DNA from: Candidatus Zipacnadia bacterium
Lineage (GTDB): Bacteria; Armatimonadota; Zipacnadia; Zipacnadales; UBA11051
Length of the DNA: 54,166 bases
NCBI GenBank assembly: GCA_029821145.1
Contig: JALGTY010000004.1
Span: 1 to 54,166, forward strand
Direction: 5' to 3'
The first letter of the stretch is position 1. Each line of letters begins with the position of its first letter. The position numbers and the translations under genes were made by a program. This document shows, in pieces, positions 3,371 to 33,109 of the stretch. The notes beneath the pieces are model-generated. The model searched no databases. It was given only the letters and a program-made list of their open reading frames with translations, and had not been told where the DNA came from.

Positions 3371-3376
3371 GTAGTC

Positions 3377-15024: not shown

Positions 15025-17007
15025 CTAAAAGGTGGCGAAGCCGCCGAACTCCAGAGAGAGCCGTCCGGTCTCTTCACTGTAGGTGAGACCGATCTCCCGC
15101 TGACCGAACATGCGCGCGAGGGTGAGTTCCCATTCGTTATATGAGGAGTCCTCGAAGCTATAAATGATGCCAGCCAGCTCCCAGCGCCAGCGCTCGCTTT
15201 GGTAGTAGTTGAGGTCGAGGTAGGAGAAGGTGTCATCAAAGGTAATATTGTGGGTGCCAAATGCGTACAAGTACCACTTGTTGCGGCGGGCGCTCAGGTC
15301 GAGGCTGAGGATCTGCTCAATGCCATCAACGGTCGCATCGCCGCTGAAATACTCGGCGCTGTAACTAAGGCCGATGATGGAATTGAGACTGAGCCGGTGC
15401 GTGAAATCCAAGTCGGCACGCAGGCCGTTCGCGTTGTAGCCGCTGGTGTCCCAGGAAAACATATTACGCAGCACAGGACGCAGGGTGGTCTTGCGGCCGA
15501 GATCATAGGTGCCCCAGTTCAGCTCTGCGAACGCCCTATTACCAAACTCAACAGCGCCGGTCTCGTGGTGGTGCTCGGTGCCGGCCGTTAGACCAATGCG
15601 GTATGAGTTGCGCTCGTTCAAAGCAATGGGGTTGGAAAGCCAGTCGCCCACCAGGCCGTAGCTTGTGTCATAGTCGCGAGGGTCGTCATAGTAGGCGCGC
15701 AGGTTAAAACGGCCCTTGTCAGTGTAGCGATAGACGCTAGCATCGGAAAAGATGCTATGGTGATCGGGCATGCTGAAGTTGAGGTAGGAATTGGCGTCGC
15801 CCCAGAGGGTGCGCTGATCCTGCCATTGCAGGCCCCAGCTCGAGCGCGGCAGGCCGGCGATCTCGATCGAGCCCTCGTAATCATTAGTAAGCGAGCGGTA
15901 CTCGCGTTCCCATGCCAGCGACCAGCCACCGCGGGCAGCGGCGACTGAACCCGATGTGGTGCCGTGCTGCACCTTCACGGCGGCGGTTGTGGTGTCAGTG
16001 ACGCTATAGAAGAACGGAAAGTCGAGAGCCACACCGCCACCGGTATCGGCGCTGAACATGTTGTTATTGGTGCTGCCGGTGTAGCCCGGTTCGCCGATGA
16101 TCCAATATGCGGGGAAGCTGAGAATCTTATCCTGATCAATCCATGCGGAGCCATGACGCAGCACTATCTTTTCGCCGATGAAGTAGGAGATGCTGTCGGC
16201 GACGAGCCAGGTCTGCGTCTCGCGGGTGTCGTAGCTGAAGGCATCCGATGGCGGCTCCCATTCCGCCTCCAGGGGCTGCAGGTCATAGGCATCAAAGAAG
16301 ACGCGCTCGATACCGGACACTCCAGCCCCGCGCAGCACTCCGCGGCGGGTGCCGAGGTCGAAGTAAAGCTGCTTGCCCGAAAGCTCCCTTTCCCCCCTGC
16401 TAACGACAACGCCCGCCTCTTCCAATGAGAATGCGCGCAGGGAGAAGTCGTTGAGGTCAATGTCTATTGTGTCGCTGGCTTCGATGGTCAGTTCGCCGAG
16501 GCGGACCTGTGCCTGATCGCGGGCCTCAAGCAGGCGGTGGTCAACACTGAAGCCGGTCCACTTGCCCTTGATATGAATGGTCTTGGCTACGGGGCGGGCC
16601 ACCTCGCCCTCAGGCAGATAGCGGATGGTAGTGCTGTTGCGGGACTCGCGAACCCAAGCCGTGATGGTGGCGAGGCCCGGGGTGTTGCTGCTGGCGAACA
16701 CAGTCGCCACGCCGCCGATAGCACGCACCTGAAGGCTCTGCTGGCGCGACACATGGTCGGTGGAAAGATAGCCGAGATTGGCGCTGATGACGACCTCGAC
16801 TTCTTCGGTGGCCAACTGTCCACTCTCGGTGCGCACCTCAATGCGCACACGGGCCTCGGTCTTGTTGTCAGCCGGGCGCTGTGGCGGGATGGCGGTGAGC
16901 TTGAGGCGGTATTGGCCGCTGCGGGCGACCTGGGCGCAAGTCTGAGGACCGCCCAGCCCTATGAGCACCGCCGCACAGAGTAGTAGTCTCAAGTGGCGAC
17001 TCAACAT
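15025..17007 (-). CDS. Outer-membrane beta-barrel protein, LptD/OstA-like, with N-terminal Ig-like domain
   Basis: The signal peptide is MLSRHLRLLLCAAVLIGLGGPQTCAQ. A bacterial Ig-like segment and an OstA-like segment (ELTIEASDTIDIDL...KQLYFDLGTRRGVLRG) follow. The long C-terminal region has alternating aromatic beta-strand patterns and ends in ...LEFGGFATF, the terminal-Phe OMP signature. Confidence 0.5.
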   Translation of the reverse strand: MLSRHLRLLLCAAVLIGLGGPQTCAQVARSGQYRLKLTAIPPQRPADNKTEARVRIEVRTESGQLATEEVEVVISANLGYLSTDHVSRQQSLQVRAIGGVATVFASSNTPGLATITAWVRESRNSTTIRYLPEGEVARPVAKTIHIKGKWTGFSVDHRLLEARDQAQVRLGELTIEASDTIDIDLNDFSLRAFSLEEAGVVVSRGERELSGKQLYFDLGTRRGVLRGAGVSGIERVFFDAYDLQPLEAEWEPPSDAFSYDTRETQTWLVADSISYFIGEKIVLRHGSAWIDQDKILSFPAYWIIGEPGYTGSTNNNMFSADTGGGVALDFPFFYSVTDTTTAAVKVQHGTTSGSVAAARGGWSLAWEREYRSLTNDYEGSIEIAGLPRSSWGLQWQDQRTLWGDANSYLNFSMPDHHSIFSDASVYRYTDKGRFNLRAYYDDPRDYDTSYGLVGDWLSNPIALNERNSYRIGLTAGTEHHHETGAVEFGNRAFAELNWGTYDLGRKTTLRPVLRNMFSWDTSGYNANGLRADLDFTHRLSLNSIIGLSYSAEYFSGDATVDGIEQILSLDLSARRNKWYLYAFGTHNITFDDTFSYLDLNYYQSERWRWELAGIIYSFEDSSYNEWELTLARMFGQREIGLTYSEETGRLSLEFGGFATF

Positions 17008-17109
17008 TTGCCTTATGCCGAGAGGTTATTCAAACCTGGTGTTATCTTGTTGCTGTCTTGTAGTGTGTCAGGCTGCAAGAGTCCACCCACGCGGATGGGA
17101 AGAACGATT

Positions 17110-17141
17110 CCGCCCTCGGGCTGAGGGTTACCCGGGGGCGG
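17110..17141 (-). terminator. GC-rich hairpin, possible terminator after the 354-aa gene
   Basis: ccgccctcggg / cccgggggcgg form an 11-bp stem with one mismatch. On the minus strand it is followed by aatcgttctt, a weak U-tract. Confidence 0.3.
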
Positions 17142-17170
17142 CACAAATGAGCGCCTACCAAGCTCTGGCA

Positions 17171-18235
17171 TCAGGTCCGTGTGAAGGCGAGGGCCCCCGA
17201 GAGAGTGTATTGTGAGGTCTCAGAGTTGGTGTACACTACTCGCACGCGGTACTGGTAAATGTATCTGCCTGAGAGTGTGGCGGTGTCCGTGTATTGTGTC
17301 ACGGCGGGCCCGATGTTGTCGGACAGAAGGCTAAAGGTGCCACCATCAACACTGCGCCATATCTCGTATTTCAGTATCGTTAGTGTGGTACCGGTCGGCG
17401 GGTTCCACGTGAGGCGGATATTTGGCTGCATCTGCGTGAGATACAAGTTGGTGACCGGCTTGGCCTGCGCGGCAGCGCCGGGCGGGGCGGCTGGGGTGCT
17501 GGAGTTGTTGACCGCAATGATCAGCACACCAACGGCCAGAGCATAGAGTAGCCACTTCCACGATTTGCTCTTTTCCCTGGCAACCGGCTGGTATTCCGTC
17601 GGTTTGCCGGCCAGCGTCTTGGCAGCCTTGTAGGCGGCGTCGCGCATGGCCTCCGCGATAAGCGGTGAGTCGCTACCTGTATAGTGGGCGCGCTCCTGGC
17701 TGTTGCCCGATACGCCAAAGGCGCGATAGACGGTCGGCTCTTCAACTACTTCGCCGGTGGCTTCGTCAACATTGCCCTTTACCTCGTACGCTTGGCCGGA
17801 CAATATGATCTTAGCCTGTCGCGGCTCTTCCTGAATATCGAATGACTGGACACTGGAAATCACAACATAGTCCATGCCGAGTACGTTGCCGATAAACAGA
17901 GCGAGGCTGGCAGAAGCCGTTTCGCCGGCTTCTACATCAATCTGGCGCAGACGGCCCTCGGAGACCGCGCGCATCACCAGTGCGGAATGGGGCGAAAACC
18001 TGCTAGCTGCGAAGTCGGCCTGGGCGTCAATGGCCATCTGCAGGGAGGCGGTCGCCTTGTAGGCGATACTTGCCTGGACGCTTTCGCTCTCATCAAGAAC
18101 CGGAAAAACCAAGACAGATCTGGTGCCCGGCTCCGCGGTGGCGGCGAAGCTGACTGGTATCAGCGATGCCAACATGCAGAATGCAACTAGGAGGCTGATA
18201 GTGCGAAAAGTGCGTCGTTTTCTTATTGTATTCAT
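17171..18235 (-). CDS. Envelope protein: signal peptide + CsgG/LpoB/TolB-N-like domain + TM helix + FN3 domain
   Basis: Signal peptide MNTIRKRRTFRTISLLVAFCMLASLIPVSFA. The SVLVFPVLDES... domain follows, then a K/R cluster and the TM helix WKWLLYALAVGVLIIAV. The C-terminus is FN3-like (IRLTWNPPTG...YEIWRS...YIYQYRVRVV). Confidence 0.55.
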   Translation of the reverse strand: MNTIRKRRTFRTISLLVAFCMLASLIPVSFAATAEPGTRSVLVFPVLDESESVQASIAYKATASLQMAIDAQADFAASRFSPHSALVMRAVSEGRLRQIDVEAGETASASLALFIGNVLGMDYVVISSVQSFDIQEEPRQAKIILSGQAYEVKGNVDEATGEVVEEPTVYRAFGVSGNSQERAHYTGSDSPLIAEAMRDAAYKAAKTLAGKPTEYQPVAREKSKSWKWLLYALAVGVLIIAVNNSSTPAAPPGAAAQAKPVTNLYLTQMQPNIRLTWNPPTGTTLTILKYEIWRSVDGGTFSLLSDNIGPAVTQYTDTATLSGRYIYQYRVRVVYTNSETSQYTLSGALAFTRT

Positions 18236-18303: not shown

Positions 18304-21147
18304 TTACGGGCTGATATTGAAGGTCCGCAGGACATTGGCAACCTGCCCGGTTTCCGGACACCGCGCGGTAATATGACAGATGTAACAGCCGCTTGGGACC
18401 GGGGCACCCTTCTGGTTCTGGCCGGCCCAAACCACACTGTTAGTGCCTTCGGGCGACATCCGGTTGGCGGCCACGCGCGCGACCGGCACGCCGGATATGT
18501 TGCGGATGACGATGTCAACATTAGCCGGTACGGTCAGGCTGTAGGTGATGGGGACCTGTCCGCCGCGAGCCTGCTGCGCGCTGAGGCTGGTCACCATGAG
18601 CGTATTGGGGCCACGCTGCCGAACGATCAGTTCGAATACTCGCGTCTCGTGGTCCTGTCTGGTGCGGTAGGTGTAGGAACTGGCGGTTCGCATGTAGCAG
18701 CGTCTGCCGGTGGCTGTATCAACAAGCGTGGGCACCAGGTCGCCGCCCATCGGCGCGAGGTCATCCCAACTGACCGTGACATCCTGGTCGGCAACGCCGG
18801 TGGAGACGGCAAAGCGCCAGGTCGTATTGGGGGCGGGTGGCCTCATGTCAACCAGCAAGCGGCCAGCCTCGTCCGCCGGCGCGTCACCACACAGGAAACC
18901 AGCATTGAGTGCCCTTGCGCCCTCGGCGACTGCCACCGGCGGCTGGGGCATGTCGTTGCGGTCGTAGCCGTCCTTGGCGCCCGGGCAGGTGCCGAAGGCA
19001 CGGTTGGTCCTGACCTGCTCGCCGGCAGTTACCGACAGCTTCACAGCCCAGCGGTCACGATCCGGTGCGGCGGCTGTCACCGGCTCCTGGGCGGCTACCG
19101 TGGCGGGGGAGAAGAGACTTGGCGGCGGGAACTGCAGAGTTATGTCGTCATAGCACAGCAGCCAATAGCCTTTGTACGGATCCAGCCGCGCCTCGGATAG
19201 CTCGGTGGACCACACGTAGTCATTGGCGAGCGGATCATATTCAAAGATGGTGGGCACCAGCAGCAGGCGGCTATAGGCCTCCCAGATCGAGTACTCGCCG
19301 CCGGCCGGCCCAATAACGCGGGCCTGGTCCAGACGCAAGGGTATGGTAAAGGGGTTGCCAATCTGGTTCCAGCCCGCCGGAAGGCGGATACTGTAGGTGC
19401 GTTCGGTAGATACAGGAACGGCGTCAAGGGGAAGTTCGACGGACTCGCGGGTCAGGTTCAGCAGCCAGAAGCCCACACCCGGCTCGATGTTGGTCGTACT
19501 GGGATCGGGGAACCAACGATACTGCCCAGTATGCGGGTCCCAGCGCACGATGGTAGCATTCCCGCCCGGCTGCAGACTACCCAGGTCCTGGAATACCCAC
19601 TCCGCATCCGTATTGCCGAATTCATAAGGTATGGAGACCATCTCCAGCCCGCGGGGCGACTCCAACGGATTGAGTACCGGCACGGCAGGGATGTTGATGA
19701 GTCGCTCCAGCACCTTGCCCTGCGGTCCGGTGAACTTGACCGAGTGGCGCCCCGGGCGAGCGGCAGTGGCCCGGATCATCCAACTGACCCACTTCAGTTC
19801 GTTGCGCCGCACTACGCCGACCGACTTCGTGGGGCTTTCGCCCTCCATTAGCTCCAGCCCAATAGGCAGCCGGATGCGGACGCTGGCGTCCAGTAGCGCC
19901 TCGGCCCCATAGTTATCTATGTAGGCTGCTATCGGGAAGGGGGAGCGGCCCTCGGAATCGCCGAGGTAATAATCCTCGACCACGTCTGGTGTGGCCGGGT
20001 CATCCCCGGTCTGTTGAATCAGCGAGGGAGGGGTATAGACCAGAAACGCATAGGGACGGTCATAGTCGGGAGTTGACATGCCCACACCGTAATAGGTGAC
20101 AAAGCGGCACGACTGGCCCGGTGATATCTCCTCGGGGTCCCACTTGACCGCATACCCCCAGTCTTCCCCCAGCAGCAAGGCTTGCGGATTCGGAGTGAAG
20201 TAGTATTGGCTGGACAGTCCCATGTTGCGCATCTGTCCCCAGGCAACCGAGTCAGGCAGGCCTGCGCTCTTGCTGGCCGGCCCGGCGTCCAAGACCTCCT
20301 GGGCGTTGATTACGCCGCGTATAGCTACGGTGGGAGCCATCGGGTCGTCGTATGTGACCCAGGTGTCCGGCAACAATTGGCCACCGAACGTAGTATCCGG
20401 CAACTTGGTTTCCCTGGTAATGGCGGTCCCGTCAGGCAGGATGATGGCCTGGCCGTCCTGCACGGCGGCACCACCAAAGATGCCGTCAAACACAATGCGG
20501 ACGCCGATACGTTGTTGCTGGGGGGTGGTGTTATAGACGATGTATTCGGCCTGCAAGGCGTCGCCGATGAGAGTAAGAGCCTGGCGCACTTCAATCCATG
20601 CCGTAGGAAGATCGTCTTCATCAAAAGCAACAGGCAGACGATAAATGCCAGTCAGATCTCTGGTACCGGCGACGGGAGCGGCGATCCAGTAGTTGGTCAG
20701 GGCGGCCGACGATTCTTGGGGATCCTGACTAGCCATCAGTTCGTGAATGTCGTAGAAGTACCCCAGGTCTTCGTCGTCCTCAACATCTTCAGCCTGTCGA
20801 GGATTTATGGCGATAGTGGTCTTGCTGGTAAAAGAGCCTCCCTGTGCGACGCTGGCGATGTTGCGGCTCTCGTCACCTGTGCGGGTGGGATCGCCCCCAA
20901 TAGGAGCTGCGGTGCCGGTCCAGAGCTGAAAGCGGCCGGCGGGGTAGTACATCCAGTCATCACCGGTTATCGTCAACGCGGGGTATTCCAGCTCCAGTCT
21001 GGTCAGCCCGCCTGGGTGCAGAACCGAGACAGTGTGGGTGGGCTGCTGGCAGAAGACGGGAGCCAGACTGACGAGCACCAGCACTAGAGTCCACAGCAGT
21101 ATGGTCTGCCGCGGAAGTTGTCGGTCAAGACTGGTTTGAGGGCCCAC
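18304..21147 (-). CDS. Large secreted protein of unknown function (947 aa) with shared C-terminal cassette and FlgD-Ig-like tail
   Basis: A signal-like segment (ILLWTLVLVLVSLAPVFCQ) is present. No family was recognised for aa 40-500. From about aa 501 onward it carries the IPYEF...GFWLL / GWNQIGNPF...GYWLL / W.VKL... / FlgD-Ig-like cassette (TYSLTVPANVDIVIRNISGVPVA...WAGQNQKGAPVPSGCY). Confidence 0.6.
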   Translation of the reverse strand: MGPQTSLDRQLPRQTILLWTLVLVLVSLAPVFCQQPTHTVSVLHPGGLTRLELEYPALTITGDDWMYYPAGRFQLWTGTAAPIGGDPTRTGDESRNIASVAQGGSFTSKTTIAINPRQAEDVEDDEDLGYFYDIHELMASQDPQESSAALTNYWIAAPVAGTRDLTGIYRLPVAFDEDDLPTAWIEVRQALTLIGDALQAEYIVYNTTPQQQRIGVRIVFDGIFGGAAVQDGQAIILPDGTAITRETKLPDTTFGGQLLPDTWVTYDDPMAPTVAIRGVINAQEVLDAGPASKSAGLPDSVAWGQMRNMGLSSQYYFTPNPQALLLGEDWGYAVKWDPEEISPGQSCRFVTYYGVGMSTPDYDRPYAFLVYTPPSLIQQTGDDPATPDVVEDYYLGDSEGRSPFPIAAYIDNYGAEALLDASVRIRLPIGLELMEGESPTKSVGVVRRNELKWVSWMIRATAARPGRHSVKFTGPQGKVLERLINIPAVPVLNPLESPRGLEMVSIPYEFGNTDAEWVFQDLGSLQPGGNATIVRWDPHTGQYRWFPDPSTTNIEPGVGFWLLNLTRESVELPLDAVPVSTERTYSIRLPAGWNQIGNPFTIPLRLDQARVIGPAGGEYSIWEAYSRLLLVPTIFEYDPLANDYVWSTELSEARLDPYKGYWLLCYDDITLQFPPPSLFSPATVAAQEPVTAAAPDRDRWAVKLSVTAGEQVRTNRAFGTCPGAKDGYDRNDMPQPPVAVAEGARALNAGFLCGDAPADEAGRLLVDMRPPAPNTTWRFAVSTGVADQDVTVSWDDLAPMGGDLVPTLVDTATGRRCYMRTASSYTYRTRQDHETRVFELIVRQRGPNTLMVTSLSAQQARGGQVPITYSLTVPANVDIVIRNISGVPVARVAANRMSPEGTNSVVWAGQNQKGAPVPSGCYICHITARCPETGQVANVLRTFNISP

Positions 21148-21178: not shown

Positions 21179-24100
21179 TCACCTTATCTTATCGAAAAGT
21201 GCGATAGCCTGTACGGTCTGGCCTTCCGGGGTGCGCGCAGTCAAGCGCACCAGGTACCTGCCATTGGGAACTCTGGTGCCGCTGTGGTTGCGGCCATTCC
21301 AGGACATTGTTTGCGTCACGCCGGCGGCTGCTTCAGTCCGCGTCAGACGTGCGATCGGCAGCCCCGCTATGTTGCGGATATCGGCAGTAACAGTAGCAGC
21401 ACGCGTCAAGGTGTAACTGACAGTCACGCTACCGTCGGTGGCATTGGCCGTGTTAATGGCCGAGACGGCCAGGCTGCCCGACTGCGCAACGGTGCAGATT
21501 ATCCTGAAATGCCGTATCTCCTGTTCGTCGCCGGTCTGGAACGTATAGCCGCTGGTTGTACGCATGTAGATGTCGCGGTTGCCGTCCAGGTCGCGCAAGA
21601 TCAGCCGGACGTTTTTCGGCACCGTCCTATTGAGTTCCTCCCAGGCGAGGGTTACGGGAGCCCGTGACAAGGTGGAAGCGACTTCGATGTCCCACTCCTG
21701 GCGGGCGCTGAGGCTGCTTCGCACATCGCGCACATAGTGTCCAGCGCGGCTACCCCAGTCGGGCTGCGGCATGTACAGCGCGAGGCCCTGGGCCAGAGCA
21801 GGCGGCTCATTCAGGTCCAGACCGATGTCATAGCCCTGGGTGCCTTCAGGGTGTACGCCGATGTAGTTGACAGGGTCCTGGAACTGGCCGCTGTAAGCTG
21901 AGATCTTCAGTGTCCATTGATCCCTGGTAGGCACGTTACTTAACTTGGCGGGCCTGGGCCTCTCGACGACCGTAGTGGTCACTGCCGGGTTGTACATGAC
22001 CAGGGCGGCATCGCGCAACACGTGCACCCAGTAGCCGCGCATATACTCCAGTATGTCTTCAGACGGATCAGACGAGAATTGGTAGTAGCCGCCGGTGGTC
22101 GTGCTGACGAAGTCGAACAGCACCCCCTCGGTGATCGCGACGTCTTCAGACATCGCTTCGCGCAGGTCATAGCGCTGGCCATCGGCAATGAAGCTAACCG
22201 TGCCCCAGTCAACCACCGACTCATAGGGGTTACCGATGAGGTTCCAGCCGCGCGGCGAATCGGTTCCATAGATGAGATTGATTTGGTACGATGTCGTGTC
22301 GCTGAGGGGGCCGGCGCCGCCTGTGTTGAGGGTGCAGCGTTTGGGCAGGCGCACGAAGTATCCGAGGCCGGCAGGCGGGTGGCTGACTATGGGATCGGAG
22401 CCGCGCGCATCCGGCGGGTTGAAGGTGGCATATTCGTCCGGATAGATGTGATACTTGACCGGCCGGGCGTCGTCGGGCACCCAGCGCGCCAGTTGCAACT
22501 CGTCGTATGGTATGCCGAATACCAGAGAGGGGTCCGCGTTGACCAGACCCGCATAGGGTAAGCTTATCAGGTGCAATCCGGCGTCAATTGATGGAGCCGC
22601 GACGCGGAAACTGGTCACCGCGGGTGTGGCCGCGTTACCATCATAGTCACTGGCGACAATAGTCAGAGTGTGTTGGCTGCGGGTAAGCTCCGCCCCGGCC
22701 GGCACCGTGTATGTGAGCAGGCCGTTGCTGGGCACATAGTCCCCGCTCACCAGATTGCCATCCAATCGGATCTCAATTGTGGTCTCGTCCACGCCGCTGC
22801 CGACATCGGTGATGGTGGCGATTATCGTTGGTGTGGCGTCGGTGATTGTGCTGCCATTGCGCGGGAAACTGATGCTGATCTGTGGCGGGGTGTTGTCGGT
22901 GCCGACACGCAGTCTCAGCCGTCCGTGGCCGTAGGTGTTGTCGGGTATCGGCTGGTTGGTGGACGGGTCGGTTTGCAGCATATGCTTGGCGGCCAGCTCC
23001 TGCAGTGTAGCGGCGAGCATGACCGGGGTATTGGTGCTGTCCTCATCCAGCAGCAGTGCAGCGGCGCCGGCGACGTGCGGTGCCGCTGCCGAGGTGCCGA
23101 CGAACGGATCGTACGCCGTTTCGACCAGGCTGGTGGTCACAAAATCGGGAGCTGACAGATCGGGCTTCGGCAGACCGCTAAGCGAGGGGCCGCGCGAGCT
23201 GAATTCTTCAATCTGATCTATGGGCAGCACCGGCTCGGCCCCCACGATGCGCAAGGAGCCGCGCGTGGCGCCGACGGTGAACGAGCCACTGGCTTCGGCA
23301 GGAACCGGCAGACTGTGCTCGAGTACTTGGTGTATGCCCTCTACATCAACATCAGGCAGGAAAAGCTGGAAATGGTCATCGGCAGGAATTGAGTCGAGTG
23401 ACATGCGTTCAATGCGCAGAGAGTAGACGCCGGCCTCAGACAGGTACGCTATCAGCATCTCATCAGGCGGATCATCGCCGTTCTGTGTCACCGCGGACCT
23501 GGTAACCTCGGTGCCGCTCGCGTCCAACAGCACCAGATCATAGTCATGGTTGGTGGTGGCGCCGGCGGTCTGATACCAACTCAGGAACGCCTGAAATCTG
23601 CCGGCGGGCAGGCTGAGGTTCATATCCTGATCACCAAAGCCCCACTCGTGGAGTCGGTCGCTGTTGCTGTCGCTCCAGTCGCCTTCGTAATGACGCTGGG
23701 CGTGGTTACCGGCGGCATTTACCCAGAAAACTCCCGAGTTCCATGCCATATTGACTTTCTGCGATATCGCGTGAGTGCCATCGTAGGGGCCCTCAAAGAT
23801 CCCCGCTGACATCACCGCAACGCCAAAACTATTGTCCCGCACATAGTTGATGGCCTGCTCGATGGCGAGGTTGGTGTCAACTGCAAGCAGATATATCTCG
23901 GCCCCGGGGGCCATATCGGCGACCACTTCGGCCACTGCTGTACCGTGCTGCGACCCGCCCATGCCGCCGCCAGTAAACGATATTGTACGCCCAGAACCCT
24001 CACCGACGCCGGGGATCTCTGCTTCGTCGTAGCCGCCAAAGCCGGTGTCTATGACCGCAACTTTGACGCCTGAGCCGGTGATGCCATTGGTGTGCATCGC

Positions 24101-24635: not shown

Positions 24636-25859
24636 TTATGGTCTACTCTTTGCAGCACAGACAGTCTCAGCCGCCGCGCTGCACGGGACTTGTATTGTCG
24701 AACCGATAAGCTGGCTCTTGCTGATCTCGTAGTAGGCCTGTAGAAACTCGGCCCACCCGGTCTCAGCAGCCAGACGATAAGTGCTCCCGTAATGTGGTGG
24801 GACCTGTTCCCACGTGGCCGGGAAGAAAATCCCCAGATTGCCCACATGGACATTTGCATTCGTCGCTTGTCGGCCGGTGCCCGGGACTATCGCGCGCTCC
24901 AGGCTTGCCTCCAATTCGCCGGCACGCTGCGAGACTTCCCTGGTGGCGGCCATTTCGTGCAGCAGGCGGGCCAGATACAGCAGATCGCACATCTCGTCTC
25001 TGTATCCCCAGTTGGGACTGCGGCTGCGTACCAAGCGTAGTGCGGGCGCATTGGCACGCGCATCCCCATTCAATGCCTCGACCAGAGCCTTCAAACGTGT
25101 TGCGACATCAGCCACGGCCCGCAGATCAACCCGTCCAAGCGCATGCTCATACTCGGCATACAGCGCCACGACAGCCGCACGTCCGTCATCACAGCCGTTC
25201 AATCGCGCCAGTACCTGCGCCCAAGGCAGACCCGGACTCGGCACGCGGTCGGGCGAGGCTACCAGGTAATTGGCCGTCTGCCGCAGGCTGTAGGCCACTT
25301 CAATACTTGCGGCGTAGCACGCCTCCAGAGATACCAACTCAACGGGCCTGTCCGTCGCATGGCTCTCGGCAAGGGCGGCGGACAACTCAGCGATACTTAG
25401 TGTATCGTTGCTGCCACCATCAAAGACCACGCCGCTAAGGTTCGGCACGAGGGTCGCCAGCCCGGTACCGTGGCCCATAACGATGAGCAGATAACGGTCT
25501 GCCGACAGATTGCCGCGTGCCCATTTCAAGAAGCGGGTCAATGTCGGCTGTGCGCCCATATTGACAACGCCTAGCGGCTGCCAGTTGGCGTGATTGCCGG
25601 ACACGGCCAGCCACCTGGCACAGACGTATGGTCCGTCCATCTGCACCGCAGCGCTGCAACAGCCGTCTGCGGCGGCTTCCATTATGGCCTGCCAGTAGGC
25701 CGCGGCTTCCTGCTCAAGCCCGCCCTGTCCGCTCAGGTACGCCATTACACCCCATTTCGGGCGCGTCGCGGCGAATGCATTGTCAAGGAGCAACACTGAA
25801 CATACTGCAAACACGACGAATACGAGTCCCGCCCGCCTGGGCGGCCGTGGCCATTGCAT
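24636..25859 (-). CDS. Clostripain-like cysteine peptidase (family C11), secreted
   Basis: KWGVMAYLSGQGGLE, the His motif LLIVMGHGTG and the Cys motif VSLEACYAASIEV fit the C11 His/Cys dyad. The ATG at 25859 lies 13 nt after the upstream stop and is preceded by GGAG. Confidence 0.65.
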   Translation of the reverse strand: MQWPRPPRRAGLVFVVFAVCSVLLLDNAFAATRPKWGVMAYLSGQGGLEQEAAAYWQAIMEAAADGCCSAAVQMDGPYVCARWLAVSGNHANWQPLGVVNMGAQPTLTRFLKWARGNLSADRYLLIVMGHGTGLATLVPNLSGVVFDGGSNDTLSIAELSAALAESHATDRPVELVSLEACYAASIEVAYSLRQTANYLVASPDRVPSPGLPWAQVLARLNGCDDGRAAVVALYAEYEHALGRVDLRAVADVATRLKALVEALNGDARANAPALRLVRSRSPNWGYRDEMCDLLYLARLLHEMAATREVSQRAGELEASLERAIVPGTGRQATNANVHVGNLGIFFPATWEQVPPHYGSTYRLAAETGWAEFLQAYYEISKSQLIGSTIQVPCSAAAETVCAAKSRP

Positions 25860-25872
25860 GGTCGGCTCCGGG

Positions 25873-27795
25873 TCAGCGGCCAACGCTGCCGTGCTTGACT
25901 CGCCAGAAGCCGGGCTTGCGGGTGGCCGGTTTCGTGTTGTCTTTGTTAAGGTCCAAGGTGCCCGGAGGCCCTAGGACGGTCTGGAATTCCCGCATTTGAC
26001 TGTACAGGTAGCCGACCTTATCGAGGTCCCTGTTGTGCGGGTCGGCTGCGTCGCCGCTGGCCCTGGCCCCGACACGCCAGTAATAGGTCGTGTCCGGAGT
26101 GAGCCCGTCAGCCGGATCGGCGACGGTGAAGGAGGCGCTCATTGTGGTGGCGCCGCCGCTGGCGCGGAGTTCTCCGCTCTGCCAGTAGAGATTGCCCCTG
26201 CCGTTGGGATCGGTGGGGCCGAACAGTTCGACGTTGTAGATGTCCGCGCCCGTGGTCACCTGCCAGGTGAAGCGGATGTTGTCGGTAGCCTGGTTTGGTG
26301 CGCCGTGAGCCGGGCTGGAAAGCTGTGGTGGCAAGAAGTATGTGATCGGCCCGAAATGGTTGCTGGCTTCGGACAAGCCGGAGCCGCCTTCCACCTCGAG
26401 TTCGAAGGTCGCCTCCACCGGCTCCTCAGCCTGCTCGGTGGCTATCGGCGGGTTGAAGCCCGGTGGGCGCTCGGGCTCAATTATTCTGCGCACGGTATAG
26501 TAATACCTGGTGCCCGGGCTCATTGGCAAGTGGTTCCATGAGGCGGTGACGTCGGCTTCTTCCTGTTCGCCTTCCTCGACAAAATAGAAGTATGTGAATT
26601 CGAAGTCCTCGATATATTCAGTGAGATTGGGGTCGTCACTGTAGCGATTGGAGGGCAGGTCTTTGCCCTCGAATACATCAATCATGTTGTGAGCAGCGGG
26701 CACGAAGTAAGGGCTGTTACCCCGGTAAATGACCCAGCCGTGAGTTCTTTCCCGTTCGGTATTGTCCGAATGGACCTTCAGAACGATGGCGGGAGCCGCG
26801 CCGCATGTCGCCTGAGAGAGGTTGCCGGTAAGCTCGGAGGCACTGGCGATCGAGGTGCCGGTGCCAACGGTGTAGATGCCCAGCAGCAGACCAACAGCGG
26901 CGATCATCTGGACGAGGTTCTTTCGAGACTTGCTGCGCTGTTCGGCCTTCTTGCGAACAGGCGGCTTGTACAGCTTATACACCCTGTCACCCGTCTGAGG
27001 GACAGACCCCTCGACAACATTACCCCAGGCCATGTTGGTGTCCACTTCCCCCACCGATATTATACCAACACGCCGCATAACTACCTTTTCCAGATCCGCA
27101 GACCAGGTGGGGCGCATTACAAGGAACTCGGTGCCGATCTCGATACCATCGCCGATGCCCAGGCCGATGTTTACTTCGCCGCGGTCGGTTACCAGGTCCA
27201 CGTGTCCGCGGCGCACCCGCCTGGCCATCATCTGGGTCACGGCGGTCTCGGCCGCGGCGCGCATGGCGTCGTTGACAACCTTGGTGATATCACCGCTCCA
27301 GCCGGGTATCGGACTGGTGCTTACGGTTGCCACCGCGCCATCCAGAAAGTCCTGCACGGTGACGCTAAGCATCTTGATCTCAATACTGCAGCGGGCCTGG
27401 CCGGTACTCTTGTTGACAGACAGCTCGCTGATGGTGCCGGTGAGGACTCTCTCGACCCTTAGTGCCTCGCCAAGCCTCACCTGCTCAACCTTGGAGACCG
27501 GCGATTGCATGCCCAAGGCGGCCATGTCCCGGTTCAGATCCAGGGTCGAGGTGACCAGGAATTCTCGTGAGCCCTCCAGCGAAAGTGCGACCGCCGCCGC
27601 AGCTTTGTCCGGCAGCAGCGGGTCATCGTGGCCTGTAACATTAGCGAAGGGCAGCACCACACAGGAGGTAACGGTTCGTCCCACACCTGACGCTGCCGTT
27701 CGCTGGCCGAAGGACATGCCGCAGGGAAGAATTATCGCTGCGATGAGAAAGTAAACCAGCTTGCGCATTATCAAACTTCTTCGAATGTACTGCAT
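25873..27795 (-). CDS. Envelope protein: signal peptide + CsgG/LpoB/TolB-N-like domain + beta-rich domain + TM helix + two FN3-like domains
   Basis: MQYIRRSLIMRKLVYFLIAAIILPCGMSFG, then CVVLPFANVTGHDD...ERVLTGTISE. A K/R-rich stretch (KPPVRKKAEQRSKSRKN) precedes the TM helix LVQMIAAVGLLLGIYTV. FN3-like segments follow (YYYTVRRI; IRFTWQV...YYWRVGAR). The start is set at the ATG at 27795 after GGAGGGAGAG. Confidence 0.55.
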   Translation of the reverse strand: MQYIRRSLIMRKLVYFLIAAIILPCGMSFGQRTAASGVGRTVTSCVVLPFANVTGHDDPLLPDKAAAAVALSLEGSREFLVTSTLDLNRDMAALGMQSPVSKVEQVRLGEALRVERVLTGTISELSVNKSTGQARCSIEIKMLSVTVQDFLDGAVATVSTSPIPGWSGDITKVVNDAMRAAAETAVTQMMARRVRRGHVDLVTDRGEVNIGLGIGDGIEIGTEFLVMRPTWSADLEKVVMRRVGIISVGEVDTNMAWGNVVEGSVPQTGDRVYKLYKPPVRKKAEQRSKSRKNLVQMIAAVGLLLGIYTVGTGTSIASASELTGNLSQATCGAAPAIVLKVHSDNTERERTHGWVIYRGNSPYFVPAAHNMIDVFEGKDLPSNRYSDDPNLTEYIEDFEFTYFYFVEEGEQEEADVTASWNHLPMSPGTRYYYTVRRIIEPERPPGFNPPIATEQAEEPVEATFELEVEGGSGLSEASNHFGPITYFLPPQLSSPAHGAPNQATDNIRFTWQVTTGADIYNVELFGPTDPNGRGNLYWQSGELRASGGATTMSASFTVADPADGLTPDTTYYWRVGARASGDAADPHNRDLDKVGYLYSQMREFQTVLGPPGTLDLNKDNTKPATRKPGFWRVKHGSVGR

Positions 27796-27916
27796 CGAGA
27801 TAGCTCTCCCTCCGACGCAGACGCAGAGATGATGTGAGCGACTGCTGCCACTCAGACAGTATAGCATACGTCATTTGGTCTGTAAAAGTCCTACCCGTCG
27901 CGCTATTGCAGGCCTG

Positions 27917-30900
27917 CTAACGGATTATTGCGACCTGGGTCAGGGCCTGTGCCTGCTGGCCGTCCTCGGTGCGTGCGGTGATCCGGATGAGATAGCGGCC
28001 GTTGGGTACCCTGACGCCTGTATTGCTGCGGCCATTCCAGGCCACGGACTGCAAGCCGGCGGCCTGGCTCTGATCCTGCACCAGGCGCCTGATGAGGCGG
28101 CCGCTGATATTGTGCACATCAACGGTCACTTGAGCGTTTTTCGACAGCGTGTAGCTGACCGCAGCGCTCGCAGCCTTGGTGGAAGCGACTGCGGCGGTTA
28201 TGGCCAACTGGCCGACGCCTGACGCTGAGGTGCTCACCCGTAGCTTGCGGGTGTGCGCGTCAGCCTCGAAGCTGTAAGCGCGGCTGGTGCGCATGTACAC
28301 CCGCTTGCCGGTAGCCAAATCGGTCAGGATAGGCTGGGTCCCGGCCGGCACGCCGGACATATCGGGCCAGGATATTTCGATCGGCTGCCCCTTGAGGTTG
28401 GTCTGCACCTCAACGTCCCACTGCTGTTGCTTGGACTGCTGACTACGGATGTCAACTGCCATCCCCGGGGCATTTGCACCTTGTAGCGACAGATAGACAT
28501 ACGCGCCGATGGCAGGCACCGGCGGCTTGGCCTGGTCGAGGCCCGGATCGAAGCCGTCAGAGGCGCCGGCTGCGGTCCCGATGTAGGCTGCGGTGTCCTG
28601 CAGACCGGCGACGGTGGCGGTGGTCTGCAACTGCAATAGCCAACCATCGGCCGGAACGGGGACGGCCGGTCTGGCCGCCTGCGTGCCTACGCCCAGCGTG
28701 TCTGTGCTCTCGTCAATGACTAGCTCGCAAGGCTCGTTGGCGTTGAGCCAGTAGCCGACATAGGGCGTCAATGCTGCGGCGACGCGGTAACCGCCCAGCA
28801 TGTAGGCGAACAGGCCGGAACCCAGCACGTTTCGGGCCATGGCGTCCTGCACCGACCGCAACACTCCGTCCTGGTCGCGGACACTGGTTGCGTAGAACTC
28901 GATGCTCGACAAGAACGGGTTACCGATGAGGTTCCAGCCTGGGACCAGCGGGATCTCGTGGATGGTTGCGGCCGGCGTGCCCTCCTGAGCCAGATCGGTG
29001 GGGCCTGCCAGATTCAGCCAGTAGCCGGTACCGAGGCGGAAGCGGTCGGCGGGAGCGCTGGGATAGATCCGGTAACGCCCGCTGCTTGCCTCCCAAGTGG
29101 CCATGTGCAGCGTGTCAACGCCGCCGAGCAAGTCCTTCGGGTCTATGTTATTCTCTCCACTGCTAAAATCCCAGGGCAGGGAGATAAGCTGCAACCCGGC
29201 CGGGAAGACGTGCAGGCTTTCCAGCACGAAGCTTACGCCGGTGGTCGTCTTACCGCTGAGCACGGTCACAACGCGCTGCTGGGGCTGCGGCTTGTAGCCG
29301 GAGACTACCGGCACAACAGTGACTTCGCCGGCCGGCACGCTTTCTTGATCGTCATCTTTGTCGAAGATGTAGTTGTAGGGCGGTGTGCCGTCGCCCGGAT
29401 CGGTAGGCGGCTCGGCGTGGGTCTCGGTGGTGCAAATGACAGTGTCACCCGACATGATTCTTATCACCACGCCGCCCACACACAGGCCGGTAGTTGCAGA
29501 TACAACCTTGCCAGAGATGCCGCCATCAGCCACCGTGTTGAGCTCTATATACACCTCTTTAGTCTCCTGAGAAACTACCACAGTGCCCAGCAGGGGTGAG
29601 GCTTCGTAGCCGGCGCGCGAGGCTCGCACCTGATAGGTGCCGGCCGGCAGCGAGATATTGACTATCCCGGTCGAGTCAGTTAGCGGGGCAGGCGCAACTA
29701 CCTGCTGGCCGTTCTCGTCGAGGATCTCGATTGTCGCATCGGGGATGTCGTCGCCCGTGTCGGCCTCGTTCACGTGTACCTCAAGGATTCCGTCAGCAGC
29801 GCCAAGAATAAAGGCCAGGTTGGTGGTATTGCCGGGCGTGACCGTTGCCTCGAGCTGCTGTGTGCCGTAGCCGACCACAGTGCCGTCAGCGACTACGATG
29901 TAGTCTCCGGGCGGAATTCCCGGAATGACGAAGGTGCCGTCCGCAGCGCTGGTACCTTCGCCGATGGGATCTCCCAGATCCTCAATGGGGATATCGCCCT
30001 CGGCCTGACCGGGGGCGACGGACGCTGTTGCCGTTTCCTCTTCTTCTTCCTCCACAGGCGCCGGATAGACGCGTATGGTGACGTTGCTGATGGGGTCGCC
30101 GGTTGCCTCAGAGACTACGGTTCCGGCTATTGCGCCTGGCTGGGCTTCCTTGATTGCGAAGTCCACCTGCACAGGTTCCTGACCGCCATGGACCCAGGAC
30201 CGTGTTCCGTGGTCAATTTCGAAGCCGGTGCGTATCACTTCGAAGGTATAATGGCCCGGGTTGAGGCCCTGCATGACATACGTGCCGTCCTTCTGGCAGC
30301 GGACGGCATACTTATACTCGGTGACCTCTCCGACTGGGTCGTCGCCCTCCTCGGGCTGCTCTCTGACACCCGCTAATAGGGTGGCAATGACGACCGGCTC
30401 AGGGTCGGTGACAGGCTTTCCGCCCTCGCTGATGGAGACGACGCGCCCCTGGAAGGTAGCGGTGCGCATCCAGCACTTGGCATTGTGGGCCAGGTGGCTG
30501 CGGTGATTCGCACAGTGTGCCGGAATGGGCGTGTGTGCGTTGATATAGCGCCGGTGAATCTGCTCAAAGCCGAATGAGAGGAAGGCCACCCGTGCACCGG
30601 TAGTGAAATTTTGATATCTGGTGCCGGCACCGGTGCCGTCGAAGCCCCCATACCCGTACATCTTTACATTTCCCACCGGGGTGATGCCATCGGCCCAGTC
30701 TGAGAATTCCGCCGCGTCGCAAAGACAGGGCTGGGAGGAGCTTTGGTTCTGTGGCGTCACCAGATCGATCGGGTTATCTGCTGCCTCGTACCAGAGGGGG
30801 GTAAATAACTGGCCAGTTGAATAGTGCACACTTGAGCTTTCGACCCAGGCGTCCCAGGCAACCGGGTCAGTGGCGGCCCCTCCAACCGTAAATCCCCACG

Positions 30901-33109
30901 TGCCGGCGGCATCGGTGTAATAGCTAGCGCGCAAATAGGTGGTCAGGAAGTTGTTGGTGGTCTTGTCGCCCATGGTCAGCGCCCAAGCGAGGTCCTGGCC
31001 GGATATGAAGAGCCGGCCGCCCTGATCCAGGAACTGACTCATCTGGGCCTGGGTGGCTGCATCCATGATCGTGCCATCGCATACCCAGACATCGCCCGTG
31101 TGCGGCGCAGCCCAGAACACCATACGGTTGGCGACCAGAACTTCCCGCTTGGCCTTTGCCGTCGTAGGACTGGCGAGGGCGTCTGCGGGGTCCAACTGGT
31201 AATCCGAACTCGGCAGGTAGTTGCGCAGAATTGTGTCGGGTATCTGCCCGCGGCAGATGATTCTCCAGACGTCGTAGCTCTCGTTGAATGGGCCGGCTAT
31301 GCTGTCGAAATCAGTGCTCCACTCCAAGCCCTCTTTGTAGCCGGGGTTGTAGCGCCAGTAGCTCTCGTTCGGAAACGCGGCAGGCCAGTCTGTGTTGTAT
31401 CCGGTGTCAGCGATGAAACGCTGGCCCTCGCAGTAGTCGTCAACAAACAAGACACGGTTATCGGGATTGAATGTGATAGTGCTAAAGCCGTAGATATCAT
31501 CGTAGGTGAGCGAGTTGCCCTCATTATCGGTTGTGGTAATGTCAATGATGTAGTCCCGGGGCACAACAGTGGTGGTATATGTGCCGGTGAAGACGCCGTC
31601 TCCCGCCGTCGAGTCTGGTGCCACGCCATCGTCCAGCAACGGTCTGGCGCCGGTTTGCACACAGTCCCATTCCAAGGCCTGATGACAACCGGGTGTTGTT
31701 CCCATCCATTGCTCAAAGCGTGCGCCGTCCCACCAGAGATAGACTTTGATGTCAGGGTCCTTGAACGTCGCTGTGACCGAGCTGACCCCGCTATCCTTGT
31801 CATAGACAGCGACATATACTGTGATGTCGGAACCGGGCGGCGGATTACGGTCATCAACCCAAGGCAGTGCATCCTCACGGTCCGGACCATTGACCAGTAC
31901 AGGCGGCACGGTGTCCCGGGCGAAGGTGGCCCAGATGTCGGGCTCACTGGCGGGGTCGTAGGGGGGGTCGGGGCGGGTTGATTGAAAGATAAACCGCATT
32001 CTGGCCCGCTGGTCGAGGTCAGGTGTCCATGTCGGGTTGGTGTCATCGTACGCATCATCGAGAACGTTGAGGGTCACAATTGTCGCGTCTGCGCCGACTG
32101 CTTCGCCGACGGCGGACATGCGCCAGATGTTGAAATCATTGGTAGTATCGCCGGGGCCTGTCACTCGCGACGACGAGAAGACAAGGCTCTGGCCGGTCGG
32201 TTGCCACGCCGGATCTATATCGTCGGCGTCCGGGTAGCCCCCACCGGTACTCAGAGCCGTCACATTGCCACCCTCGCCGTCCATGGCGAAGATGCGCTGT
32301 ACAGTGCCCGTGGTGGTCTGGTAGGCAATGTAGGGAGATGTCGGCGACCAGGCCGGAGAGGTCTCGTCATTGGGACTGACCGCAAGCGGCACTTCGGAGC
32401 CAGCGCCGGTGGATGAGATCTTGAAGATGTCCCAGTTGCCGCTGCGGTCACACTGGAAGGCGATCCAGTTGCTGTCAGGTGACCAGGTCGGATGGCGTTT
32501 GTTGCCCTGGGTGGTGGTGATCTGCCAGATGACGCCTGTGCTAACCTCGATAGTATATATCTGATAAGTGCCGGTCTGGTTGGAGGCGTATGCCAACAGC
32601 CTGCCACTGGGATTGAAAGCGGGCTCGCGCTGGTCGCCCGGCAGATCGACGAGTTGCACTTGCTGGGTGCCGTCGGGCCGCATCAGCCAGAGGTTGAATT
32701 CGGGCTCGTCGGGCAAGGTGGGGTCAATCTGGCGGTCGGCGTCGGCGTCTTCGCCGTTGCTTACAAACGCGATAGAGTTGGCGCCGGTAGCAGGAGATGA
32801 ACTGGGGTCAAGTTCCTCCGTCGCCACCGCGTTTGGGGTGATATCATCATCCCGGTCCGGGCCCGGGCCCTGTTGCGTATCCACACCACCATGACGCTCC
32901 GGGCACTCCATACAGCCGATGACTTGGCGCGGAGGCCCTGGCAACGGCTCACGCTGCAGCCTGTCCAGCGACAACAGCGGCCCCGCAGCACGTAGGCGTG
33001 AGGACTGCGTCGAGGCGACGGATGATATGATAAGTAGAATTGCGACCAGTAGACAGAAGAGCAATAATGAAGCCAGGGGTCTGGTGTGGCCCTTCTGCAA
33101 GATAATCAC
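27917..33109 (-). CDS. Giant secreted multidomain protein (about 1730 aa): TolB-like beta-propeller + unknown central domain + carboxypeptidase-regulatory-like repeats + shared C-terminal cassette
   Basis: PD40/TolB-type blades are present (PAFNPSGRLLAYASNQTGTYQIY, PTWSPDSNWIAFQCDRSGNWDIF, PAWSPTSPYIAYQ). CarboxypepD_reg-like repeats are present (GTVVSEATGDPISNVTIRVY, GKVVSATTGLCVGGVVIRI). The cassette is ISLPWDF...GYWLN / GWNLIGNPF...GYWLN / FlgD-Ig tail. The start is ambiguous: GTG at 33109 or TTG at 33100. Confidence 0.7.
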   Translation of the reverse strand: MIILQKGHTRPLASLLLFCLLVAILLIISSVASTQSSRLRAAGPLLSLDRLQREPLPGPPRQVIGCMECPERHGGVDTQQGPGPDRDDDITPNAVATEELDPSSSPATGANSIAFVSNGEDADADRQIDPTLPDEPEFNLWLMRPDGTQQVQLVDLPGDQREPAFNPSGRLLAYASNQTGTYQIYTIEVSTGVIWQITTTQGNKRHPTWSPDSNWIAFQCDRSGNWDIFKISSTGAGSEVPLAVSPNDETSPAWSPTSPYIAYQTTTGTVQRIFAMDGEGGNVTALSTGGGYPDADDIDPAWQPTGQSLVFSSSRVTGPGDTTNDFNIWRMSAVGEAVGADATIVTLNVLDDAYDDTNPTWTPDLDQRARMRFIFQSTRPDPPYDPASEPDIWATFARDTVPPVLVNGPDREDALPWVDDRNPPPGSDITVYVAVYDKDSGVSSVTATFKDPDIKVYLWWDGARFEQWMGTTPGCHQALEWDCVQTGARPLLDDGVAPDSTAGDGVFTGTYTTTVVPRDYIIDITTTDNEGNSLTYDDIYGFSTITFNPDNRVLFVDDYCEGQRFIADTGYNTDWPAAFPNESYWRYNPGYKEGLEWSTDFDSIAGPFNESYDVWRIICRGQIPDTILRNYLPSSDYQLDPADALASPTTAKAKREVLVANRMVFWAAPHTGDVWVCDGTIMDAATQAQMSQFLDQGGRLFISGQDLAWALTMGDKTTNNFLTTYLRASYYTDAAGTWGFTVGGAATDPVAWDAWVESSSVHYSTGQLFTPLWYEAADNPIDLVTPQNQSSSQPCLCDAAEFSDWADGITPVGNVKMYGYGGFDGTGAGTRYQNFTTGARVAFLSFGFEQIHRRYINAHTPIPAHCANHRSHLAHNAKCWMRTATFQGRVVSISEGGKPVTDPEPVVIATLLAGVREQPEEGDDPVGEVTEYKYAVRCQKDGTYVMQGLNPGHYTFEVIRTGFEIDHGTRSWVHGGQEPVQVDFAIKEAQPGAIAGTVVSEATGDPISNVTIRVYPAPVEEEEEETATASVAPGQAEGDIPIEDLGDPIGEGTSAADGTFVIPGIPPGDYIVVADGTVVGYGTQQLEATVTPGNTTNLAFILGAADGILEVHVNEADTGDDIPDATIEILDENGQQVVAPAPLTDSTGIVNISLPAGTYQVRASRAGYEASPLLGTVVVSQETKEVYIELNTVADGGISGKVVSATTGLCVGGVVIRIMSGDTVICTTETHAEPPTDPGDGTPPYNYIFDKDDDQESVPAGEVTVVPVVSGYKPQPQQRVVTVLSGKTTTGVSFVLESLHVFPAGLQLISLPWDFSSGENNIDPKDLLGGVDTLHMATWEASSGRYRIYPSAPADRFRLGTGYWLNLAGPTDLAQEGTPAATIHEIPLVPGWNLIGNPFLSSIEFYATSVRDQDGVLRSVQDAMARNVLGSGLFAYMLGGYRVAAALTPYVGYWLNANEPCELVIDESTDTLGVGTQAARPAVPVPADGWLLQLQTTATVAGLQDTAAYIGTAAGASDGFDPGLDQAKPPVPAIGAYVYLSLQGANAPGMAVDIRSQQSKQQQWDVEVQTNLKGQPIEISWPDMSGVPAGTQPILTDLATGKRVYMRTSRAYSFEADAHTRKLRVSTSASGVGQLAITAAVASTKAASAAVSYTLSKNAQVTVDVHNISGRLIRRLVQDQSQAAGLQSVAWNGRSNTGVRVPNGRYLIRITARTEDGQQAQALTQVAIIR

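Follow-up and report, generated by a model that had tools for sequence, protein, structure and literature searches.

A conserved seven-gene cluster of Armatimonadota, candidate for an outer-envelope surface assembly

Little is known of the envelope biology of Armatimonadota, including how these bacteria place proteins on the cell surface. This analysis concerns seven genes at positions 15025-33109, minus strand, of a contig from an Armatimonadota metagenome-assembled genome (Candidatus Zipacnadia bacterium, GenBank assembly GCA_029821145.1, contig JALGTY010000004.1, positions 1 to 54,166; this whole 54,166-nucleotide [nt] stretch is called the window below). The cluster lies between coaE and uvrB, and we call its genes g1 to g7. 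Do they form a unit, and if so, for what? We favor, tentatively and with a confidence that falls a little short of even, the view that they are a vertically inherited, operon-like cluster of one deep Armatimonadota lineage, encoding an outer-envelope surface assembly with its own outer membrane (OM) platform. A preliminary description of this DNA had listed seven consecutive minus-strand open reading frames (ORFs) separated by 13 to 163 nt; all seven were found where it placed them, with gaps of that size. The genes and the predicted domains of their products (lengths in amino acids [aa]; Ig, immunoglobulin-like) are as follows.

27917-33109, minus strand: g1, 1730 aa; N-terminal hydrophobic anchor or signal, TolB-type beta-propeller (about aa 130-400), choice-of-anchor-X-like Ig domain, conserved domain without family assignment (about aa 550-1000), CarboxypepD_reg/prealbumin array (about aa 1000-1290), then a C-terminal module shared with g4 and g5, with a terminal FlgD_ig
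25873-27795, minus strand: g2, 640 aa; signal peptide, CsgG/TolB_N-like domain, FlgT_C-like barrel, K/R-rich stretch and hydrophobic helix (aa 294-312), two FN3/Ig-like domains, Pro-rich tail ending G-W-W-G-x-x-R
24636-25883 (ATG at 25859), minus strand: g3, 415 aa; C11 peptidase
21179-24556, minus strand: g4, 1125 aa; signal peptide, S8 subtilase (D170/H204/S489), Big_7 Ig domain, shared module ending in FlgD_ig
18304-21147, minus strand: g5, 947 aa; signal peptide, N-terminal beta-supersandwich (about aa 40-380), Ig domain, shared module
17171-18235, minus strand: g6, 354 aa; signal peptide, CsgG/TolB_N-like domain, K/R-rich stretch and hydrophobic helix (aa 225-243), Pro-rich linker, one FN3 domain
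15025-17007, minus strand: g7, 660 aa, OM protein; signal peptide, Big_1/Invasin_D3 Ig domain (aa 33-131), beta-jellyroll-like domain (aa 143-305), barrel (aa 326-655), C terminus ...GGFATF

N-terminal hydrophobic segments, also part of that description, were recovered for g1 to g6 by a hydropathy scan; that of g7 is weaker but signal-like, as judged by eye from the translation.

The case for a unit begins with gene order. A g4 alignment run against the GTDB species representatives picked out 30 Armatimonadota loci (labeled Armatimonadia, Candidatus Zipacnadia, or 'WS1'); outside the phylum, the S8 domain alone matched. Gene order was read by tblastn of all seven proteins and the flanking genes, together with three look-ups of g5 homologues, and a g7 alignment brought in 29 further metagenome loci, for a total of about 60 related loci. 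In every sufficiently long contig from about 30 representative genomes and 29 metagenome contigs, g1-g2-g3-g4-g5-g6-g7 occur in identical order and on the same strand. The genes thus behave as a conserved unit, which supports the earlier suggestion of a single unit. Median gaps from g1 through g7 across the lineage are 122, 1, 71, 29, 73, and 102 nt, and each contig has one copy of the cluster. The cluster stays intact at loci where the flanking genes have changed (L003/L004, L012, L023, L025, and L026). Orthologues of all seven genes are encoded in the related loci, which shows that these are real genes; a protein search returned dozens of full-length homologues each for g5, g6, and g7, at 30 to 90% identity, with 67 homologues in the g5 family.

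The preliminary description also spoke of an island flanked by housekeeping genes. The flanks are as described (coaE at 33486-34094 and uvrB at 12958-14973), uvrB/uvrC bordering the cluster at one end and coaE/rpsA/polA at the other, but the word "island" does not fit. GC content is flat across the cluster, at 0.59 to 0.63, and the remainder of the window is housekeeping as well (an ilv operon, sppA, accA/accD, pheA, truA, rpoA, rpsD, and adk). Horizontal acquisition is ruled out by this composition and by neighbors such as the ilv genes, uvrBC, coaE, rpsA, polA, accAD, rpoA, and adk; the cluster is therefore better described as a core-genome operon.

One distant relative shows how far the arrangement can vary. 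At L043 (L043:9873-24519), where polA is 41% and rpsA 48% identical, the same genomic position reads sppA-polA-rpsA-coaE and then g1' (lacking the propeller), g2', g4' (S8 plus module), g5', and g7' (with Big_1); g3 and g6 are missing. Because this locus keeps five genes without those two, the core consists of the module trio, the barrel, and a single scaffold, whereas the C11 peptidase and the second scaffold are later additions or dispensable. In the metagenomes scanned with the g7 alignment, no relative below 35% identity turned up.

Transcription of the cluster was described earlier as running from one strong extended -10 promoter. That promoter (P1) is there, matching 11 of 12 consensus positions plus the TG extension, but it is not the only one.

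33269-33298, minus strand: promoter P1, TTGGCA, 18-nt spacer, TGnTATAAT extended -10, upstream of g1
27858-27886, minus strand: promoter P2, TTTACA, 17-nt spacer, TGCTATACT, in the g1-g2 gap
14995-15013, minus strand: terminator-like hairpin directly after the g7 stop codon
14990-14980: -10 element of uvrB itself, beyond the hairpin

Both promoters are invariant blocks inside otherwise diverged intergenic DNA of the relatives. The -35 and -10 blocks of P1 are unchanged in four relatives while the rest of the spacer has diverged, a phylogenetic footprint; P2 is conserved in five relatives, and downstream of it lie a Shine-Dalgarno sequence, likewise conserved, and the ATG of g2 (27795). The longest g2 ORF extends to 27867, but these conserved start signals favor the shorter start that had been given for the gene. 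A motif search found no further extended -10 motif between g2 and g7; in the window, the same motif also marks the starts of other genes (the T-box/ilv leader, uvrB, and a CNNM gene). Two transcription units are likely, one running from P1 into g1 and the other from P2 through g2-g7 to the terminator-like hairpin.

The g1 leader has a feature of its own. A block, GGCCGGTCAACGTAGAATGCATCAAAGCA, lies in it (33110-33150) just upstream of a GAGGA Shine-Dalgarno sequence and is largely conserved in four relatives, in which the remaining leader (about 150 nt) diverges. Rfam gave no match there; the block could be a regulatory site.

The most informative feature of the products is the module shared by g1, g4, and g5, about 440 to 470 residues long and 28 to 34% identical between copies (blastp E 1e-41 to 1e-55). 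It is a three-domain beta-sandwich unit whose copies are paralogous and whose last domain is of the FlgD-Ig type.

27917-29200, minus strand: module copy in g1, aa 1304-1730
21179-22582, minus strand: module copy in g4, aa 659-1125
18304-19680, minus strand: module copy in g5, aa about 490-947

When a profile built from the module was run against 1.84 billion representative proteins, 1,999 representative clusters matched at E<=1e-30. The best 150 matches are nearly always full-length and sit at the extreme C terminus of proteins of 400 to 3,800 aa. Among 144 top hits, 86 were g1-, g4-, or g5-like; the other 58 included different subtilases, FG-GAP/ASPIC, Big_1, and PHP-domain proteins, and giants of 3,797 and 2,571 aa. 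The N-terminal passenger domains of module proteins are highly diverse.

Two loci illustrate such other settings. In L042 (L042:6955-16836), a 1004-aa protein ending in the module is preceded by an unknown 974-aa protein and followed by two CarboxypepD_reg proteins and then by LptC-like and OstA_2/LptA-like genes; DUF5693 and polysaccharide pyruvyl transferase genes lie upstream, and no homologue of g2, g6, or g7 was seen there. In L044 (L044:1531-20876), the two giants are adjacent and both end in the module, the second (2,571 aa) carrying S8, FG-GAP, and CarboxypepD_reg domains.

The heads that precede the module differ in each of the three cluster proteins. For g1, the label of a TolB-propeller giant is sound, with a Pfam PD40 match and a PDB profile match to TolB at E 1.8e-29. 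The protein nevertheless falls outside the TolB of the Tol-Pal system: it scores 94.8 bits on the equivalog model TIGR02800 against a cut-off of 343, with the propeller blades alone matching; it has 1730 aa instead of about 430, and it has no tol or pal neighbors. Residues 550-1000, about 450 aa, are strongly conserved without a match to any family. For g5, the sole Pfam match is FlgD_ig, in line with the earlier remark that its N terminus belongs to no recognizable family, and a PDB sequence search found nothing. An AlphaFold2 model (pLDDT 88.4) gives it an N-terminal beta-supersandwich of the galactose-mutarotase type, followed by Ig and beta-sandwich domains. In Foldseek, the supersandwich resembles the N-terminal domains of GH94 and GH116, OpgD, and the YidC P1 domain, with TM-scores up to 0.44; the whole model gave diffuse multi-Ig matches in which the supersandwich alone was readable. 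A local fold match of g5 to the Bacillus Vpr fibril was set aside, as g5 has no S8 domain.

Both peptidases named at the outset are well supported. The product of g3 is a secreted C11 peptidase (clostripain family, clan CD; Pfam E 5.7e-25; 89 bits on PF03415 against a cut-off of 25.8) whose catalytic dyad, His138 and Cys189, is invariant in 27 of 27 sequences; its nearest solved structures are single-domain Bacteroidales C11 enzymes. That of g4 scores 73.9 bits on PF00082 (cut-off 21.8) and has all of D170, H204, and S489. The triad is intact in 28 of 31 g4 sequences and replaced in L003, L024, and L025 (e.g., L003:6653-9967), which have A, L, and A or S in place of D, H, and S. This subclade, which includes Candidatus Zipacnadum vermilionense, keeps a full-length g4 and the whole cluster, and its g4 is thus a retained pseudoprotease. 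Retention at full length after loss of the triad argues for a structural role beyond catalysis and, with the lack of a C11 gene in the distant L043 variant, weakens the idea of a proteolytic system. In their architecture, the two proteins recall Bacteroidales surface subtilases and C11 peptidases of the PmC11 and fragipain type, with g4 combining S8, Ig, and a sorting-type C terminus and g3 keeping the His/Cys dyad; unlike those peptidases, they belong to a fixed unit of seven genes that includes nonenzymatic partners, and the S8 triad is dispensable in one subclade. The possibility that g4 is a lipoprotein was rejected, the cysteine not being conserved.

Two further proteins, g2 and g6, look like scaffolds. 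Their alignment, which takes in the signal peptide along with the N-terminal alpha/beta domain, has an hhalign probability of 99.5% (E 1e-22), while direct BLAST of one against the other gave no match, so that their homology is visible only by profile-profile comparison. By that comparison they are paralogues, g6 being the short version. The preliminary description had called both CsgG/LpoB-like proteins with a transmembrane segment and FN3. The FN3 part stands: in the g6 family, fn3 matched 30 of 40 members, FN3-like models also match the g2 family, and PDB profile searches with g6 and g2 returned FN3 domains only. The CsgG/LpoB part is reasonable but sub-threshold. CsgG matched 9 of 24 members of the g2 family (best E 9.6e-5) and FlgT_C 4 of 24, LpoB matched 2 of 40 members of the g6 family and CsgG none, all CsgG and FlgT matches of orthologues were below thresholds, and the Pfam scan of the window proteins themselves gave no CsgG (PF03783) match.

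The N-terminal domains of g2 and g6 nonetheless belong to the same alpha/beta fold group as CsgG (curli, type VIII secretion) and FlgT/FlgO/FlgP. Known CsgG/FlgT-type members form rings under or in the OM. Unlike them, g2 and g6 have no lipobox (a conserved lipobox cysteine is missing), and the cluster has no curli or flagellar genes; we know of no central hydrophobic helix with a C-terminal FN3 domain in CsgG or FlgT. The topology of the helix is puzzling. In both proteins, a cleavable-looking signal peptide leads into a domain of periplasmic type, the K/R-rich stretch precedes the helix rather than following it, and the uncharged Pro-rich linker and FN3 come after. By the positive-inside rule, such basic residues before the helix would leave the FN3 end on the outer side, at odds with a simple inner-membrane stop-transfer topology.

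Several smaller observations concern these two families. The signal-peptide n-region, M-x-x-I/L-R-x-x-x-x-x-R, is conserved in both (18190-18235 and 27750-27795); in g6, M1, I4, R5, and R11 are each at least 90% conserved, which is unusual for an ordinary Sec signal. A Tat signal in g6 was considered and rejected, the twin arginine not being conserved. The C termini of g2 (25873-25970 in the window, and those of orthologues) are Pro-rich and then end in a conserved basic tail, G-[WF]-W-G-x-x-R, e.g., GFWRVKHGSVGR and RGWWGERRAPGR, which could be a sorting or binding motif. One g6 homologue, P0128 (42% identity), comes from an 8.4-kb metagenome-assembled contig labeled 'Bacteroidota bacterium', whereas all other named homologues are from Armatimonadota; the label is probably a binning error, and transfer is possible.

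The last gene, g7, had been described as an LptD-like beta-barrel ending in Phe. The ...GGFATF terminus bears out the second half; the LptD likeness holds at the level of fold only. The AlphaFold2 model (pLDDT 81.6) shows an Ig domain, a jellyroll-like domain built from about 16 short strands, and then a barrel with about 21 to 22 strands. The top PDB fold matches are full-length LptD, N-terminal jellyroll included (E 4.6e-13), at TM-scores of about 0.3 for the whole model and 0.40 when the barrel is taken by itself. Next come TonB-dependent receptors and ushers (E about 1e-5; TM-scores of 0.19 to 0.26 for ushers), and neither PorV nor SprA is among the top 50. A PDB sequence search with g7 found nothing, and NCBIfam gave no match. 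Big_1 is present in 31 of 31 family members; LptD (PF04453), LptD_N, and OstA models matched 0 of 31 even at E<=1, and it is because of this lack of any match that we limit the resemblance to fold. A chaperone-usher or autotransporter system can be dismissed, the usher matches of g7 being weak and Pfam and NCBIfam showing no chaperone, pilin, or autotransporter families among the cluster proteins.

What might such a set of proteins do? The host envelope is suited to an OM assembly. Armatimonadota are diderm, as seen by cryo-electron microscopy of Fervidibacter (PMC11535203), and Zipacnadia carry lipopolysaccharide (LPS) genes (PMC10290634). We propose that the common module would target g1, g4, and g5 to the OM and anchor them there. 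The three module copies may also pack together, given that no variant lacks any of the trio. A dedicated platform for display, through it or on it, would be provided by the g7 barrel, with g2 and g6 as rings or scaffolds beneath or within the OM, and g3 would trim or mature components. Clan CD, to which the C11 family of g3 belongs, is also the clan of PorU, the sortase of the type IX secretion system (T9SS), in the MEROPS classification. The exposed heads (propeller, subtilase, and sugar-binding sandwich) would capture polymers at the surface of the cell and degrade them. The export and anchoring mechanism in this scheme is one that we infer.

Several points count against an assembly with its own platform. 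Synteny, which is what links the components here, cannot by itself tell machinery plus cargo from a set of co-regulated envelope proteins. The pairs rpsA-coaE and uvrB-uvrC are usually kept along with the cluster, so that the synteny is in part general collinearity. The L043 variant does without g3 and g6. Module proteins occur elsewhere with no g2, g6, or g7 nearby (L042 and L044), which implies either that any machinery serves cargo encoded elsewhere or that the module works without machinery; the module family is also far larger than the g6 and g7 families, which were found in this lineage only. Finally, basic residues precede rather than trail the helix of g2 and g6, leaving the topology cues in conflict, and the global TM-score of g7 against LptD is low.

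Some of these points lead directly to the strongest alternative, which we regard as possible though rather doubtful: that the cluster is a set of co-regulated secreted and envelope proteins with no dedicated machinery, in which g1, g3, g4, and g5 are extracellular hydrolases or binders that leave by general export, and g2, g6, and g7 are unrelated envelope proteins placed in the operon by chance. Module proteins encoded apart from g2, g6, and g7 would be expected under that alternative, as would the high collinearity seen in the conserved housekeeping flanks, and extracellular S8 peptidases are common in Zipacnadia genomes (PMC10290634). It accounts less well for a cluster that remains intact where its flanks change, for a five-gene core that survives at 41% polA identity, or for the tight spacing of g2-g7 behind one conserved promoter. 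Nor does it sit easily with an inactivated S8 protein kept at full length, or with g2, g6, and g7 families that occur in this context in every locus long enough to show neighbors.

A bolder version of the surface-assembly reading would make the cluster a new OM display or secretion apparatus of diderm Terrabacteria, in which g7 with g2 and g6 exports and anchors the module proteins and the C11 peptidase acts as a processing enzyme or like a sortase; we consider this unlikely. Under it, the apparatus would be related to the T9SS attachment machinery as an evolutionary cousin, or would have arisen independently as its analogue beyond Bacteroidota, and it would serve the roughly 2,000 module clusters. 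All of the folds are of known kinds, and their combination matches no named system: sequence-model and fold searches assign the set to none, in line with the preliminary description, and the literature searched (Armatimonadota with FlgD or T9SS, PF13860, and Zipacnadia) contained no description of the cluster or the module.

Quite unlikely, in our estimate, is a housekeeping operon for LPS or envelope integrity that would act in OM biogenesis or tethering, with g7 as a divergent LptD, g6 or g2 as an LptE-like plug, and g1 as a TolB-like tether. Several features point that way. The best fold matches of g7 are to LptD, its N-terminal jellyroll is followed by a large C-terminal barrel as in LptD, and the small alpha/beta protein g6 next to it recalls the pairing of LptD with LptE; g1 has a genuine TolB-type propeller, the CsgG/LpoB/TolB_N-type fold of g2 and g6 is typical of OM-associated periplasmic proteins, and the cluster is a core-genome one, with one copy per contig, in a lineage that makes LPS (PMC10290634). 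However, the LptD, LptD_N, and OstA models that miss all 31 g7 members do recognize an Armatimonadota-type LptA/LptC pair in L042. In g7, the barrel is made up of about 22 strands instead of 26, a Big_1 Ig domain is added at the N terminus, and the TM-score is only about 0.3. Unlike an LptE, g2 and g6 are not lipoproteins and carry a hydrophobic helix and FN3. Neither the window nor the annotated relatives showed an lptA, lptB, lptC, lptF, lptG, tolA, tolQ, tolR, or pal gene within the cluster or next to it, and proteases and carbohydrate-type heads would be unexpected in an Lpt or Tol system.

That leaves T9SS. The last 80 or so residues of the module belong to a superfamily that unites FlgD-Ig domains with T9SS C-terminal sorting domains. 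FlgD models matched 55 of 55 orthologue tails, the PorU C-terminal domain 54, PorZ 46, and TIGR04183 42 (at E<=1; best E 7.6e-7), and the FlgD matches were as good as or better than those to T9SS domains. The g1 tail of the window scored 22.2 bits on TIGR04183 against a cut-off of 23, and full-length proteins gave no TIGR04183 match at the C terminus. The preliminary description had noted no Por/T9SS core genes; none is present in the window, but the absence of any T9SS link that this seemed to imply leaves out of account the last domain of g1, g4, and g5, a FlgD-Ig type akin to the T9SS sorting domain.

The resemblance extends to the attachment complex of Bacteroidota (PorU, PorV, PorZ, and PorQ), whose cargo ends in an Ig-like C-terminal domain of the same superfamily: a clan CD cysteine peptidase is encoded alongside, an OM barrel partner is present, and g1, like PorZ, combines a beta-propeller with that C-terminal domain. 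The differences are substantial. The conserved C-terminal unit has about 440 aa and three domains instead of about 80 aa; g3 is a C11 rather than a C25 peptidase and has no C-terminal sorting domain of its own; g7 is an LptD-like barrel of about 22 strands with Ig and jellyroll domains, whereas PorV is a 14-strand FadL-like barrel and SprA has 36 strands; and the host is an armatimonadote (Terrabacteria), with no PorK/L/M/N-like genes seen in the window or the flanks of related loci. We therefore consider it very unlikely that the cluster is ordinary cargo, with accessory proteins, of a T9SS encoded elsewhere in the genome: for all the PorU, PorZ, and TIGR04183 matches of the tails and the PorU-like clan of g3, FlgD models do equally well or better on every tail, the unit conserved is not the short sorting domain, no T9SS component lies in the 54-kb window or the flanks (<=10 kb) of related loci, PorV and SprA are missing from the top 50 fold matches of g7, a review describes T9SS as limited to Bacteroidetes (PMC11611037), and no T9SS-Armatimonadota link appeared in the literature searched.

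The cluster offers a defined, conserved seven-gene set, a widespread module that links FlgD-type Ig domains with T9SS sorting domains, and, in g7, a barrel of LptD-like fold outside an LPS setting. Should the barrel and scaffolds prove to be export or anchoring machinery, this would be a new route of OM protein display, with implications for how sorting by T9SS-type C-terminal domains arose. Otherwise, the cluster would still be a signature surface complex of a whole uncultured class, useful as a marker and as a target for proteomics or cryo-electron tomography.

Elsewhere in the window, a T-box leader lies at 3390-3632, plus strand (Rfam RF00230, 104.7 bits), directly upstream of a DUF1028 gene (3630-4349), which is followed by ilvD, ilvB, ilvN, a pentapeptide-repeat gene, and ilvC. 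It is probably the tRNA-sensing leader of a branched-chain amino acid operon. A TGnTATACT -10 element precedes it at 3360-3370, and an ORF on the minus strand with no Pfam match (2666-3616) overlaps it. A single tRNA-Leu(CAA) gene is found at 39928-40016, plus strand, between sppA and accA. Over rpsA (34001-36000), the AT skew is strongly negative, at -0.33, as would be expected if this minus-strand gene has an A-rich coding strand.

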